From Acidobacteriota bacterium (GTDB lineage Bacteria; Acidobacteriota; Terriglobia; Bryobacterales; Bryobacteraceae), in NCBI GenBank assembly GCA_016871015.1, contig VFZX01000001.1, positions 64,923 through 88,922 of the forward strand: a stretch of 24,000 nucleotides of DNA. Direction: 5' to 3'. Shown piece after piece: positions 17,036 through 19,990 of the stretch (position 1 is the first letter of the stretch; each line of letters starts with the position of its first letter). The notes beneath the pieces were generated by a model. The model was not told the origin of the DNA and searched no databases. It was given only the letters and a program-made list of their open reading frames with translations. The position numbers were made by a program, and so were the translations under genes.

Positions 17036-17599
17036 ATGCAAAACCACAAGAGCCTCTACCAGCGTCAATCGCTCCTCATCAACGCGAACATCACCCAGCT
17101 CCGGCAGGGAGTCGCGCTGCTGGGACAGATCAGTGACCTGCAGTACTCGACGTCTCCGCGGAGTTTGCCTGGACAAACAGCGGGCGGCCACATCCGCCAC
17201 ATCCTTGAATTCTATGAGTGCCTTCTCGGCGGGCTCGATTCAACTCATGTCGACTACGACGCGCGCCGGCGTGACCCGATGGTGCAGAATCACCGCGGAG
17301 TCGCGATCCAGCGGCTGCGAGCGGTGATGGACTGGCTGTCCTTGGAGCCCACGTTGCGTGGCGACGGTGTCCTCATGGTCCGCATGGAGGACGCACCGAA
17401 GGGAGAAGGCTACGACACTTTCCTCACCTCTTCAGTGGCGCGAGAGCTGCAAGTGCTCGCCAGCCACACGGTGCACCACTTCGCGCTCGTGTCGATCATC
17501 CTGAAGGCACACGGAGCCGAGGTGGAGCAGGAACTTGGTGTCGCGCCTTCGACGCTGCGGTACAGCTCGCGCCTGGTGGTGGTTGCGGAGGCAGCCTGA
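17036..17599 (+). CDS. DinB/YfiT-like superfamily protein (putative metal-dependent four-helix-bundle enzyme)
   Basis: ORF 16919..17599, with the preferred start at ATG 17036 ('MQNHKSLYQRQ'). It has His motifs at DinB_2-like spacing: 'GGHIRHILEFYE' near the N-terminus and 'LASHTVHHFALV' near the C-terminus, followed by 'GVAPSTLRY'. The family call is from the motif pattern only. Confidence 0.5.
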   Translation: MQNHKSLYQRQSLLINANITQLRQGVALLGQISDLQYSTSPRSLPGQTAGGHIRHILEFYECLLGGLDSTHVDYDARRRDPMVQNHRGVAIQRLRAVMDWLSLEPTLRGDGVLMVRMEDAPKGEGYDTFLTSSVARELQVLASHTVHHFALVSIILKAHGAEVEQELGVAPSTLRYSSRLVVVAEAA

Positions 17600-18348
17600 T
17601 GTGCACCGTGACCTGGCAGATCGACGCGGATGGATACGAACTGCTGTGCAACCGGGACGAACGCAAGAGCAGGCGTCCCGCCGCCGGACCTCGCGTCCGG
17701 CTGCACCGCGGCGTTCCGGTGCTGGCGCCAGAGGACGGGCAAGCCGGAGGCGCTTGGATCGCCGTGAATAGTGCCGGGGCCACACTATGCCTGCTCAACG
17801 GCCACGTATCCGCGCTCGTGCGGTCCGCCGGCGTCCGCAGCCGGGGAATGCTGGTGATGGACCTCGCCGCCGCGGACGACGCGGCCAGTGAACTGGCCCG
17901 GACCGATGTCCGCCAGTTTGCGCCATTCACGCTGCTTCTTCTCACGCGGCGCGAAGAGACGGTGTTTCTTTGGGACGGTGCCCGCCTGACGGGCGCGGCG
18001 CACTCCGGCCCACGCTTGCTCACCTCCTCCTCGCTCGACCAGCGACAGGCAGAGCTGTTGCGCACGCGCCAGTTCGCAACGAGCGCCGCGGGCATCCGCG
18101 AGCGGTTGCAATTTCATGCCAGCCATTCGGGTCCGGATCGCGCCTTTACTCCGTGTATGCACCGGACCGACGCGGAGACCGTGAGTTTCAGCATAATCCG
18201 CGTTTCCGCCCGCCAGGCGGAGTTCGGATATAGCCCCGCGGCGCTGTGTCAAGGCGCGCCGCTGGAGTGGACCAACATGCAATTTGCTCTCCGGGAGTCC
18301 GCACATGCCCGTCCTCTTTTGGCTCGCGCTGTCGACCTTCGCGTCTGA
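17599..18348 (+). CDS. NRDE-family (TANGO2/DUF833-like) protein
   Basis: 249 aa. It starts 'MCT', i.e. Cys directly after the initiator Met. The 'NRDE' motif lies at 17650-17661 ('LLCNRDERKSR'), followed by 'GGAWIAVNSAG', 'LLNG' and 'RSRGMLV' blocks characteristic of the family. Its start overlaps the upstream stop (TGATG at 17597-17601). Confidence 0.8.
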   Translation: MCTVTWQIDADGYELLCNRDERKSRRPAAGPRVRLHRGVPVLAPEDGQAGGAWIAVNSAGATLCLLNGHVSALVRSAGVRSRGMLVMDLAAADDAASELARTDVRQFAPFTLLLLTRREETVFLWDGARLTGAAHSGPRLLTSSSLDQRQAELLRTRQFATSAAGIRERLQFHASHSGPDRAFTPCMHRTDAETVSFSIIRVSARQAEFGYSPAALCQGAPLEWTNMQFALRESAHARPLLARAVDLRV

Positions 18349-19990
18349 GGATCTCGCTTGCATCGCCGCGGGGACGCTGATCGCTCAGGGATCAATCGGC
18401 TTCTGGCAAGGTGCGCTCGCCTGCCTCGCCGGAATCTTCGCGGGTGACGTGATGCTGATGATCAGCGGACGCGTACTCGGCGCGCGTGTCGCCGGACGCC
18501 TGGCCCCGCCGGAAAAACTGGCGGAGGCCTCGTCGTGGATTTCACGCCGCGGGCTTGTGGTCGCGCTGGCAAGCCGGTTCACGCCGGGGACACGCCTGGC
18601 GACGTATCTGGCCGCGGGAGTGCTTCGCGTCAATCCATGGAAGTTCAGCGCGTATCTTCTGCTCGCTGCGGCTCTGTGGACTCCGCCGCTGGTCTGGATC
18701 AGTTCGCGGCTTGGCGAACAGGTCCTCCGGGGCACGGTGCGCGCAGCCACGATTTCGGTTGTTGCCGCGGCAGCGCTCTTGCTGGTTGCACGGGTGGCGC
18801 TCGATTTCCGCCGCCGCAGGAGATTCGTTGGACGGCTCCTCCGCGTGATCCGGTGGGAGTTCTGGCCAGCCTGGATCGCCTACCTGCCGCTGATCCCCTA
18901 CCTCCTCTACCTTGCCTGCAAACACCGCTCGCTCACATTGTTTACCGCGGCGAATCCCGGAATCGAATCGGGGGGATTCGTGGGCGAGTCAAAGTCGCGG
19001 ATCCTCTCGCAACTGGACGTCTGTGCCGGCGCGGTGGCGTCTTTCCGCACGTTCGAATCCGCCAGCGATCTGGTGAACCCGTTCGGATTCCCGGTGGTCA
19101 TCAAGCCAGACATCGGAGAGCGTGGGGCAGGCGTCGTCATCGCGCGTTCGGACGAACAACTGCGCGAGGCCGCGGCATCCATGCACGGGCGGTTCATCCT
19201 GCAGCAATACGTGCCGGGGATCGAGTTCGGCGTCTTCTATTACCGTTATCCGGACGAGGAACGCGGGCGGGTCTTCTCGATCACCGCAAAGCACTCGCCC
19301 TCCGTGACAGGGGACGGACACCGGACCGTCGAGGAGTTGATCCTCGCCGACACGCGCGCCGTGTGCCTGGCTGGTGCCTACCTCGCCGCCAACTCAGACA
19401 TCGCCCAAACGACGCCCCCAAACGGCGGGCGGATCCAGCTCGTCGAGATCGGCTCCCACTGCCGCGGGTCAGTCTTTCTGGACGGCACCGCGCTGCTGAC
19501 CCCCGCCATCGAACAGCGCATTGAAGAGATCAGCCGGGCTCATTCCGGATTCTACTTCGGCCGGTACGATGTCCGTGCGGAATCGGTCGAGGCTTTCCAG
19601 CGCGGGGACTTCCTTGTGATCGAGCTGAACGGCGTCAGCTCAGAGGCGACGCACATCTATGATCCACGGGTCCCGGTGTGGCAAGCCTACCGCACGATGT
19701 TCCACCTGTGGCGGACGGCGTTTCAAATCGGCGCTGCCAACAGACGCCTCGGTGCGAGCCCTTGTTGTATCCTCGCATTGAGGAAGACTCTCTATCCGCG
19801 GATTTCTTTTTTGCCTGGTTTCCGCCGTGGCGCCGTTGGCGCTCCACGCGCAAACGACGCAGGGCCTGATGCTAGGCCGCGTGGTGGATTCCGTGACTGG
19901 CGCACCCGTAGCCGGAGTGCAGATCACGGTCACATCGGCCGCGCTCAACGTTCGCGCGCAGGTGAATACGTCACCAGCCGGATACTATAG
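18305..19990 (+). CDS. Fusion protein: N-terminal DedA/VTT membrane domain + C-terminal ATP-grasp (CphA/RimK-like) carboxylate-amine ligase; 3' end uncertain
   Basis: ORF 18284(TTG)..19990. The preferred start is ATG 18305, preceded by GGGAG. The DedA-like part spans ~18305-18810 ('FASEDLACIAAGTLIAQG...GIFAGDVMLMISGRVLG...RFTPGTRLATYLAAG'), followed by extra TM segments. The ATP-grasp part spans ~19016-19753 ('FPVVIKPDIGERGAGVVI', 'LQQYVPGIEFGVFYY', 'SVTGDGHRTVEELI', 'FGRYDVR', 'VIELNGVSSEATHIYDP'). The last ~58 codons are Arg-rich and overlap the next gene, so the true stop is doubtful. Confidence 0.75.
   Translation: MPVLFWLALSTFASEDLACIAAGTLIAQGSIGFWQGALACLAGIFAGDVMLMISGRVLGARVAGRLAPPEKLAEASSWISRRGLVVALASRFTPGTRLATYLAAGVLRVNPWKFSAYLLLAAALWTPPLVWISSRLGEQVLRGTVRAATISVVAAAALLLVARVALDFRRRRRFVGRLLRVIRWEFWPAWIAYLPLIPYLLYLACKHRSLTLFTAANPGIESGGFVGESKSRILSQLDVCAGAVASFRTFESASDLVNPFGFPVVIKPDIGERGAGVVIARSDEQLREAAASMHGRFILQQYVPGIEFGVFYYRYPDEERGRVFSITAKHSPSVTGDGHRTVEELILADTRAVCLAGAYLAANSDIAQTTPPNGGRIQLVEIGSHCRGSVFLDGTALLTPAIEQRIEEISRAHSGFYFGRYDVRAESVEAFQRGDFLVIELNGVSSEATHIYDPRVPVWQAYRTMFHLWRTAFQIGAANRRLGASPCCILALRKTLYPRISFLPGFRRGAVGAPRANDAGPDARPRGGFRDWRTRSRSADHGHIGRAQRSRAGEYVTSRIL

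Follow-up and report, generated by a model that had tools for sequence, protein, structure and literature searches.

The window studied here is a stretch of 24,000 nucleotides (nt) from an Acidobacteriota bacterium of the family Bryobacteraceae (GenBank assembly GCA_016871015.1, contig VFZX01000001.1, positions 64,923 to 88,922 of the forward strand). At positions 17036-19990 it carries three tightly packed open reading frames (ORFs), all on the + strand, that encode a DinB/YfiT-like protein (ORF1), a protein of the TANGO2/NRDE family (ORF2) and a DedA/VTT-ATP-grasp fusion protein (ORF3). Relatives of ORF3 occur in at least 8 phyla, and OlsB- and/or OlsA-like acyltransferase genes are found in the same operon in 48 of the 65 loci that are informative on this point (74%). 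This cross-phylum link of the module to OlsB/OlsA-like aminolipid genes is new. With a probability of about one half, we propose that the module works at the membrane, where it would use ATP to form an amide bond on the head group of an OlsBA-type aminolipid, and that the TANGO2-like protein would be an accessory acyl-amide hydrolase or transacylase. In this reading, the genes would belong to an aminolipid operon with uncharacterised head-group enzymes.

The distribution of the module was deduced from a scan in which each GTDB species was represented by a single genome and which located ORF3 relatives at no fewer than 595 loci. The best 80 of these at least 595 loci belong to Acidobacteriota, Gemmatimonadota, Planctomycetota and Verrucomicrobiota, and also to Bacteroidota (Rhodothermia, Balneolaceae), Gamma- and other Pseudomonadota, Desulfobacterota and Spirochaetota. 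An exhaustive profile search with ORF3 returned 1834 clusters at 50% identity (E ≤ 1e-30). ORFs were called in 84 loci and searched with iterated hidden Markov models of ORF1 and ORF2. Loci were counted as informative if they had at least 1.5 kb of upstream DNA for the DinB/TANGO2 counts (n = 70) and at least 3.5 kb for the Ols counts (n = 65). A DinB-like gene is present in 56 of the 70 loci (80%) and a TANGO2-like gene in 39 (56%); in almost every case these genes share the strand of ORF3 and directly precede it. The junction between the DinB-like and TANGO2-like genes is an overlap (-1, -13 or -22 nt) or a gap of at most 10 nt in 36 of the 37 loci that have both. Most junctions between the upstream gene and ORF3 are overlaps, ranging from 4 to about 80 nt, or gaps of less than 20 nt. 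Searches anchored the other way round also recover the module, from two of three TANGO2 homologs and from both DinB homologs used.

An initial annotation, made from the letters of the window alone, had described the three genes as one translationally coupled unit and as a module of three families. The coupling is borne out by the tight junctions in related loci, and synteny outside this genome is conserved across phyla. As for the composition of the module, the DinB-like partner stands, whereas the TANGO2 gene is an accessory and not a core part, and a commoner form of ORF3 that bears a hydrolase domain, described below, had been missed. Many of the closest loci come from a single order, the Bryobacterales, and there synteny could be inherited. 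Adjacency by chance or by shared descent of three functionally unrelated genes is nevertheless so strongly disfavoured as to be nearly negligible, given that the linkage extends over at least 8 phyla and survives changes in gene order, that stop/start overlaps are conserved and that searches anchored on each family lead back to the module. The ORF3 family is abundant in soil Acidobacteriota and Gemmatimonadota. Two loci lie on contigs of metagenome-assembled genomes labelled Clostridia and Heliobacteriaceae (L015 and L031); their operon is 47-49% identical to the acidobacterial one and has an Acidobacteria-like organisation, and these contigs are probably mis-binned or mislabelled.

Clustering of the neighbouring ORFs showed that the next most conserved neighbours are an Acetyltransf_5 protein (PF13444), in 52 loci, and a PF01553 acyltransferase, in 46 loci. 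Compared with the NCBIfam equivalogs, the two families match OlsB (E = 7.5e-41) and OlsA (E = 1e-43), respectively. The usual gene order is OlsB-OlsA-DinB-(TANGO2)-ORF3. Other orders are observed in Opitutaceae (L043, L060) and in Blastocatellia (L044, L067), with the linkage kept. In Paludibaculum, an OlsF-like gene (E = 1e-114) is located about 2 kb from the module. The initial annotation had considered a small-molecule or a lipid-head-group modification pathway. Because the module is embedded in OlsB/OlsA-like aminolipid operons in 48 of the 65 informative loci, the lipid option is favoured and the small-molecule option less so. This link could not have been seen earlier, since the genes concerned are absent from the window.

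ORF3 (18305-19990, +) is a protein of 561 residues. Its N-terminal membrane part (18305-18940) contains a VTT domain at residues 22-132 (18368-18700), recognised by the Pfam model VTT_dom with E = 8e-15 and 55.8 bits against a cut-off of 33.9. Hydropathy delineates four hydrophobic segments (residues 3-21, 35-59, 114-132 and 143-170), after which comes a conserved interfacial stretch, RWEFWPxWxAYLPLxPY (alignment A1). The ATP-grasp ligase domain follows (18941-19789, residues ~213-495). It contains the motifs NPGxxxGGxxGESK, VLKPDxGERGxGV, QxYVxGxEFG, GSHCRG, FGRxDxR and ELNGV. The ATP-binding Lys267 (codon 19103-19105), the hinge residue Glu307, and the Mg-binding residues Asp422 and Glu440-x-Asn442 (codons 19622-19624 and 19628-19630) are invariant in the 22 sequences of alignment A1, and the E-L-N of ORF3 aligns to E-I-N of PDB entry 7ta5. 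The protein had been annotated as a membrane-anchored ATP-grasp ligase, with a lack of ATP- and Mg-binding residues named as a possible objection; the VTT_dom match and the invariance of these residues uphold that description.

The assignment of the ligase domain to a particular family is less direct. Pfam ATP-grasp matches barely pass (CPSase_L_D2, 21.5 against 19.8; RimK, 21.1 against 21.0) and NCBIfam matches are all below threshold, the cyanophycin synthetase model giving 37 bits against a cut-off of 850, with about 115 residues of the G domain matched. The best match in a profile search of the PDB is 7ta5 (E = 7e-9 over 190 residues), followed by the G domain of cyanophycin synthase, GshAB, Ddl and RimK. 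A canonical pre-ATP-grasp (acceptor-binding) N-domain was not found in ORF3 from profile coordinates and hydropathy. The matches to Ddl and CphA start at residues ~116 and ~219 of these proteins, which correspond to ORF3 residue ~232, and the ORF3 residues before this point are transmembrane segments. Judging from these coordinates, the membrane domain of ORF3 appears to replace the acceptor-binding N-domain. The C-terminal tail up to the stop codon (19790-19990, residues ~496-561) is unconserved and overlaps the start region of the next gene.

The VTT domain also shows a weak match to the model of the undecaprenyl-phosphate transporter UptA (E = 1.3e-8, 35 bits against a cut-off of 250), and Ddl-type ATP-grasp enzymes act in peptidoglycan synthesis. 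Both facts would fit a modification of polyprenyl-phosphate envelope precursors, in which an amino acid is added to lipid II or to an undecaprenyl-linked glycan and the DedA domain is an UptA-like flippase. We consider this quite improbable, because the UptA match reflects general DedA similarity only, the conserved neighbours include no peptidoglycan, glycosyltransferase or polysaccharide genes, and the linkage runs instead to OlsB/OlsA-like genes.

ORF2 (17599-18348, +, 249 residues) begins with MCTVTW. It passes the Pfam TANGO2 model PF05742 (E = 1.6e-10, 42 bits against a cut-off of 22.6), with a match that covers residues 1-122 and only positions 1-133 of the 257 of the profile; no NCBIfam model matches. 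Met1, Cys2 (codon 17602-17604) and the NRDE motif (Asn18, Arg19, Asp20 and Glu21; 17650-17661) are invariant in the 26 sequences of alignment A3. TANGO2 genes start with (A/G)TG-TGY, that is with Met-Cys, in all 39 of the 39 loci examined. The AlphaFold2 (AF2) model of ORF2 has a predicted local distance difference test (pLDDT) value of 87. Search for structural similarities using Foldseek gave human TANGO2 as the best match (8sv7/9bwa, E = 7e-9 to 5e-8, TM-score 0.55-0.60), followed by isopenicillin-N acyltransferase (2x1d), CV2077 (3gvz), NAAA, bile-salt hydrolase, acid ceramidase and penicillin V acylase. The match in the PDB sequence profile search is weak (E = 0.025). By its motifs and its predicted structure, ORF2 is a member of the TANGO2/NRDE family with a Cys-type N-terminal nucleophile (Cys-Ntn) fold. 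The NRDE protein with a Met-Cys start and an Ntn-hydrolase-like fold that had been proposed from the sequence is thus recovered by the profile, the alignment and the fold comparison. The last ~15 residues, encoded within the overlap with ORF3, are unconserved and modelled with low confidence.

Two further observations were made on this family. Beyond the Ntn catalytic set, alignment A3 contains additional residues that are invariant in the ORF2 subfamily (C17, H173, H176, C186, H188 and C217); they were recorded as lying in the C-terminal half, which the PF05742 profile does not match, and these Cys and His residues might form a metal site. A distant TANGO2 homolog with 39% identity to ORF2 (L088, 2631-3416) lies outside the module, near an SDR gene and a gene of the penicillin-amidase family. 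Therefore, this TANGO2 branch is not always tied to ORF3.

TANGO2 deficiency is a human disease, and the activity of the protein is disputed, the proposals being a heme chaperone, a role in acyl-CoA/lipid metabolism or a Cys-Ntn hydrolase. A 2026 crystal study of human TANGO2 found heme binding to be nonspecific and proposed a Cys-Ntn hydrolase with a large, amphipathic, lipid-sized cavity, comparing the protein with the same Cys-Ntn enzymes as those retrieved here with ORF2 (PMC13044924). Shewanella HtpA and eukaryotic TANGO2 proteins have been reported to bind heme, and the reported heme ligand Tyr108 tolerates Phe (PMC10470608); this tolerance makes the sequence of ORF2 uninformative on a heme role. 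ORF2 could be an HtpA-like heme trafficker, for instance for a protein in which a Ferric_reduct domain of the heme-b type is fused to a Rieske domain and whose gene is found in 31 of the 84 loci, and the three genes would have no common substrate. This is very unlikely. ORF2 is coupled to the DinB-like gene and to ORF3, not to the Ferric_reduct-Rieske gene, which the window lacks and which 11 loci carry although they have no TANGO2 gene. Moreover, the heme binding of the human protein is nonspecific, as stated above, and the invariant Cys2 and NRDE catalytic set argue for an enzyme.

ORF3 is a protein of ~860 residues, extended by an N-terminal alpha/beta-hydrolase domain, at roughly one locus in two and among most of the top cluster representatives. 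This commoner architecture consists of a transmembrane (TM) anchor, the alpha/beta hydrolase, the VTT domain and the ATP-grasp domain (L024, 6990-9554; L025, 6939-9569; 38 further loci). The 561-residue ORF3 of the window represents the minority form, and two proteins are longer still (L036 and L081, 1059-1134 residues). The fused hydrolase conserves an HG motif, a GxSMGG motif, an Asp and a His, leaving the Ser-Asp-His triad intact. A TANGO2 gene accompanies 27 of 35 short-form loci versus 12 of 35 hydrolase-fused loci. This bias suggests that TANGO2 and the fused hydrolase would have partly interchangeable roles as acyl hydrolase or acyl transferase.

The hydrolase-fused form bears on another explanation, namely that the module is a self-contained synthase of an aminolipid (N-acyl amino acid). 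The ATP-grasp domain would activate a membrane-embedded (hydroxy) fatty acid and join it to an amino acid as the primary N-acyl amide, and TANGO2 or the hydrolase would carry out the second (O- or N-) acyl transfer. There is a precedent in ornithine-lipid synthesis of Singulisphaera, where OlsH, a GH3-like ATP-dependent amide synthetase, would be the counterpart of the first step and OlsI, an alpha/beta hydrolase proven to be a lyso-ornithine-lipid O-acyltransferase, that of the second (PMC12493201). A self-contained synthase would also agree with the absence of adjacent OlsB/OlsA genes from the window and most Bryobacterales loci, with the direct fusion of a hydrolase with an intact triad to ORF3, and with the resemblance of the TANGO2 fold to the acyl-CoA-dependent isopenicillin-N acyltransferase. 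However, where OlsB/OlsA-like genes are present, as in 74% of informative loci, a second primary synthase would be redundant. The carboxylates that the nearest ATP-grasp relatives activate are those of amino acids or peptides rather than those of fatty acids, and some loci (L009, L018, L038) have neither TANGO2 nor the hydrolase domain. We regard such a synthase as rather unlikely.

ORF1 (17036-17599, +, 187 residues) scores below the cut-off of the Pfam model DinB_2 (PF12867; E = 0.013, 16.4 bits against 24.8), and a few of its homologs have precomputed matches to PF12867 or to PF05163 (DinB). No NCBIfam model matches it and the PDB sequence profile search gave nothing meaningful, so that its similarity to DinB is revealed only by the predicted fold. 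The family comprises at least 776 proteins. Alignment A2 shows as invariant H52, R54, H55, E58, H71, D73, Y74, D75, R77, R79, D80, E118, D119, R136, E137, H144, H147 and H148. Among these, the pairs H52/H55 and H144/H148, invariant in 24 sequences, are located in helices 49-66 and 134-158 of the AF2 model (pLDDT 91). Foldseek matches of this model in the PDB include 3gor, 2f22, 2qe9 and 1rxq (probability 1.0, TM-score 0.55-0.76), and the top 25 are all of the DinB/YfiT type (probability 0.96-1.0, target TM-score 0.47-0.76), with E-values of only ~5e-3. From the model, ORF1 is predicted to be a four-helix bundle of the DinB/YfiT fold. The initial description of a DinB/YfiT-like protein with a His motif is therefore retained on the basis of the fold match and the invariant His set, despite the sub-cut-off Pfam score.

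Characterised DinB/YfiT proteins include thiol transferases, and the mycothiol S-transferase 8f5v and EgtB are among the weaker fold matches of ORF1. A Met-Cys Ntn start is common to amidotransferase-type enzymes, and the best structure matches of ORF3 are 7ta5, deposited as 'glutathione synthase', cyanophycin synthase and GshAB. Together, these similarities could indicate a soluble peptide or thiol metabolite, handled by a GshF- or cyanophycin-like ligase, a DinB thiol S-transferase, an EgtC-like gamma-glutamyl amidohydrolase and a DedA importer or exporter. Such a pathway seems unlikely to us: the ligase is fused to a membrane domain and lacks the soluble acceptor-binding N-domain, the conserved partners are lipid acyltransferases rather than genes of amino-acid or thiol biosynthesis, and the fold matches of ORF2 are acyl-amide hydrolases, not GATase-type Ntn enzymes.

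Modification of an aminolipid head group could proceed as follows. The translationally coupled unit would work on the cytoplasmic side of the inner membrane, and its substrate would be an acyloxyacyl amino-acid lipid resembling ornithine lipids. This substrate would be produced by acyltransferases of the OlsB/OlsA or OlsF type, encoded in most lineages in the same operon. Most probably, the ATP-grasp domain of ORF3 would phosphorylate the free carboxylate of the head group and couple an amine or an amino acid to it, since its nearest relatives (CphA G domain, GshF, RimK and Ddl) extend a C-terminal carboxylate. The alternative polarity, where an activated carboxylate is joined to the free amine of the lipid, may also apply. 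The DedA/VTT domain would stand in for the missing acceptor-binding domain and present the membrane-embedded lipid to the ligase; it may also flip the product, following the synthase-plus-flippase logic of MprF. The putative DinB-fold metalloprotein would be the obligate partner; it could provide the nucleophile or activate it, or else catalyse another transfer or hydrolysis. Finally, the TANGO2-like Cys-Ntn enzyme would have an accessory function, editing or remodelling the lipid as an N-acyl-amide hydrolase or transacylase, a role that in other lineages may be taken over in part by the alpha/beta-hydrolase domain fused to ORF3.

Several observations weigh against a head-group ligase for aminolipids. 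The window contains no OlsB, OlsA or OlsF gene, and thus no N-acyltransferase (PF13444) with an O-acyltransferase (PF01553 or PF19576) encoded alongside the module. The association is less close in Bryobacterales, where only some loci have an OlsF-like gene a few kb away. These bacteria keep the module beside genes for a MIP-family protein, a GMC oxidoreductase and a VOC protein in place of the Ols-like genes. Since Ols genes are absent here and present in most related loci, we take the module of the window to be an orthologue of the Ols-linked module that is not itself in an Ols cluster, and the acyltransferases for the aminolipid of this genome would be encoded elsewhere in it. The Ols-like neighbours remain below the equivalog cut-offs (OlsB-like, 140 against 350; OlsA-like, 149 against 300); for this reason, the head-group amino acid, on which the availability of a free carboxylate or amine depends, may not be ornithine. 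None of the evidence explains the role of the DinB-like protein, and redox genes of the wider operon (Ferric_reduct-Rieske, DoxX-like and Cys-rich membrane protein) are unaccounted for. In addition, the DedA domain could equally transport a soluble substrate, and there is a report of heme binding by TANGO2 homologs (PMC10470608).

The wider operon that surrounds the module is conserved (L040, 2309-10180; L054, 2156-9581; L001, 9617-15569). Besides the Ferric_reduct-Rieske gene (31 of 84 loci), it encodes a ~90-residue membrane protein, a ~173-residue protein, a DoxX_2-like protein and a protein of 240-270 residues that matches no Pfam model and has one TM segment and a conserved Cys motif (GEIVDSKC...HRxCAxRCISGG). 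Genes for an ECF sigma factor or a YHS-domain protein are frequent in the vicinity. One clustered family, 'u253', was dropped because it is an antisense shadow ORF of the Ferric_reduct-Rieske gene; neighbour families 1, 3, 7, 10 and 13 of the clustering look like shadow ORFs too.

The layout of the three genes within the window, whose G+C content is 60-67%, supports translational coupling. The TGA stop codon of ORF1 (17597-17599) shares its last A with the ATG of ORF2 (17599-17601), giving the sequence TGATG at 17597-17601. ORF2 ends with a stop codon at 18346-18348 and overlaps by 44 nt (18305-18348) with ORF3, whose ATG is at 18305-18307. These coordinates, the TGATG and the overlap of about 44 nt are as first annotated. 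For ORF1, NCBI uses an alternative TTG start at 17012, which gives 195 residues. The start of ORF3 at 18305 is favoured because the N-termini of homologs agree in alignment A1: the protein of the window begins MPVLFWLALSTFASEDL and the homologs begin M..QLLLIALATFASEDL. ORF3 is listed in NCBI as a hypothetical protein (FJW39_00320). The sequence and the gene calls are identical in two independent assemblies.

Upstream, the divergent intergenic region between a MIP gene on the - strand and ORF1 on the + strand (16839-17035, from the gene calls) presumably holds the promoter of the three-gene unit. A scan for promoters and terminators and an Rfam search in and around the unit gave no sigma-70-like promoter, terminator or Rfam element above chance. 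The three genes had been described as divergent from an aquaporin operon, and the MIP gene (16116-16838) does lie on the - strand. It is the first of a block of - strand genes (13102-16838), given here for context only, that continues with a GMC oxidoreductase (14554-16113), a two-domain VOC/glyoxalase protein (13536-14552) and a 130-residue protein (13102-13494). In Bryobacterales loci the same block (MIP, GMC, VOC and ~130-residue protein) adjoins the module, as it does, differently oriented, in Opitutaceae and further Acidobacteriota (L043, L066, L039, L089, L090). Its recurrence suggests a functional link to the module.

Downstream of ORF3, the next gene (ORF 19827-22940) encodes a protein with a CarboxypepD_reg domain and an outer-membrane beta-barrel, and is apparently devoid of a proper start. 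Gene callers begin it at ~19962, its first canonical start is GTG at 19827, and a signal-peptide-like stretch, RGFLFCLVSAVAPLALHAQ, lies in frame upstream of that codon. The sole candidate start by RGFLFCLVSAVAPLALHAQ is an ATC at 19794, 7 nt past a Shine-Dalgarno-like GAGGAAG (19780-19786). This start region (19779-19990) coincides with the C-terminal tail of ORF3, which is not conserved. We considered whether the T6 run at 19806-19811 contains a frameshift or an assembly error that would account for both the ORF3 tail and the absent start; an assembly artefact was rejected because two independent assemblies agree in sequence. Upstream in the window are a second CarboxypepD_reg/OMP_b-brl_4 outer-membrane protein (7340-10561), a GDSL-like lipase (10563-11447) that overlaps the start of the next gene, which encodes a 518-residue protein (11444-13000, no Pfam match), and a 388-residue ORF (4760-5926), also devoid of a Pfam match.

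The three proteins belong to known superfamilies and none meets the cut-off of a characterised family. As anticipated in the initial annotation, which could map the module to no characterised pathway, profile searches with Pfam, NCBIfam and PADLOC place none of the ORFs in one; in particular, none of the three proteins matches a PADLOC model of anti-phage defence. A literature search on aminolipids or ornithine lipids in combination with ATP-grasp, DedA, VTT or TANGO2 brought up no account of either the fusion or the module. Roughly half of the bacterial species sequenced make amino-acid lipids, which shape stress tolerance and host immune recognition. To our knowledge, the enzymes that elaborate aminolipid head groups beyond hydroxylation and methylation are not known. 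Among them is an ATP-dependent taurine ligase, of which a biochemical description dates from the 1970s. Aminolipid reviews from 2024 and 2026 name no DedA, DinB or TANGO2 protein and refer to ATP-grasp only in general terms; ATP-dependent transfer of taurine to the carboxyl group of an ornithine lipid is known biochemically with its gene unidentified, and Ser-Gly and Orn-Ser-Gly head groups exist for which no ligase is named (PMC12971839).

Linked to OlsB/OlsA-like genes in at least eight phyla, the DedA-ATP-grasp fusion is a specific candidate, open to testing, for orphan ligations of the head group, those of the cerilipin type among them. If the proposal is true, ORF3 would represent a new design, with a domain of a lipid-scramblase family in place of the substrate-binding domain of the ligase. 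The translationally coupled bacterial TANGO2 homolog would offer a simple system for finding the substrate of TANGO2, and the operon would be the first genetically defined substrate context for this family. With ~1800 clusters at 50% identity and an abundance in soil Acidobacteriota and Gemmatimonadota, the product could be an environmentally common lipid. A more complete picture can be drawn, though it is doubtful: the module would make a new lipid class of OlsBA aminolipids extended or acylated through an ATP-grasp amide, with the DedA domain as presenter or flippase, ORF3 as the missing family of cerilipin-type ligases and the TANGO2 homolog as Cys-Ntn hydrolase or transacylase.

Comparison with known systems places each protein close to, and yet apart from, characterised relatives. 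Like the DinB/YfiT superfamily (YfiT/BstA, mycothiol S-transferase, the N-domain of EgtB and ClbS), ORF1 is predicted to be a four-helix bundle. Its second long helix carries a His and its last helix an H-x3-H (H144, H148), which are candidates for the metal-binding His triad of the superfamily. It shares 11-19% identity with solved members, has in addition an invariant acidic/basic loop, HxDYDxRxRD, and has no thiol-cofactor genes nearby. ORF2 has the Met-Cys start, the NRDE motif and the predicted four-layer alpha-beta-beta-alpha fold of human TANGO2, Shewanella HtpA and Chromobacterium CV2077. It differs from them in that its N-terminal half alone matches Pfam and PDB profiles and its C-terminal half has invariant Cys and His residues of its own. 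Its genomic context is that of lipid acyltransferases, not that of cytochrome c maturation. With the Cys-Ntn acyl-amide enzymes (NAAA, acid ceramidase, bile-salt hydrolase, penicillin V acylase and isopenicillin-N acyltransferase; fold match E = 2e-7 to 1e-4), ORF2 has in common an N-terminal Cys nucleophile and an Arg-Asp ~17-19 residues further on. Sequence identity to these enzymes is 9-14%, and ORF2 would have no propeptide, because removal of the Met exposes the Cys.

The closest sequence matches of ORF3 are the CphA G domain, CphA2, GshF/GshAB, RimK and Ddl (7ta5, 7e-9; CphA, ~4e-6). The Lys, hinge and E-x-N Mg motifs are common to all, and the chemistry of these relatives is the addition of an amino acid to a carboxylate; ORF3 differs by the absence of a pre-ATP-grasp N-domain and of M or N domains, and by its fused DedA membrane domain. 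MprF, an aminoacyl-phosphatidylglycerol synthase fused to a flippase domain, has a like design, in which a domain that aminoacylates a head group is joined to a membrane domain of a lipid-translocating family. The two proteins are non-homologous: MprF has a different fold and uses aminoacyl-tRNA, and ORF3 combines ATP-grasp with DedA/VTT. In the OlsH/OlsI pathway, an ATP-dependent amide ligase and an alpha/beta hydrolase both act on ornithine lipids (PMC12493201), a precedent for the commoner form of ORF3, in which an alpha/beta-hydrolase domain with an intact triad is fused to the predicted ligase; the ligase superfamilies differ, GH3/ANL in one case and ATP-grasp in the other. None of the window genes is homologous to OlsB, OlsA or OlsF, or to the modifying enzymes OlsC, OlsD, OlsE and OlsG; what ties the module to these synthesis operons is the operon shared with OlsB-like and OlsA-like genes, or the proximity of an OlsF-like gene, in 48 of 65 loci. 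The transfer of taurine in cerilipin synthesis by Gluconobacter cerinus and the ligations that yield Ser-Gly and Orn-Ser-Gly head groups belong to the same reaction class as that proposed for the module.

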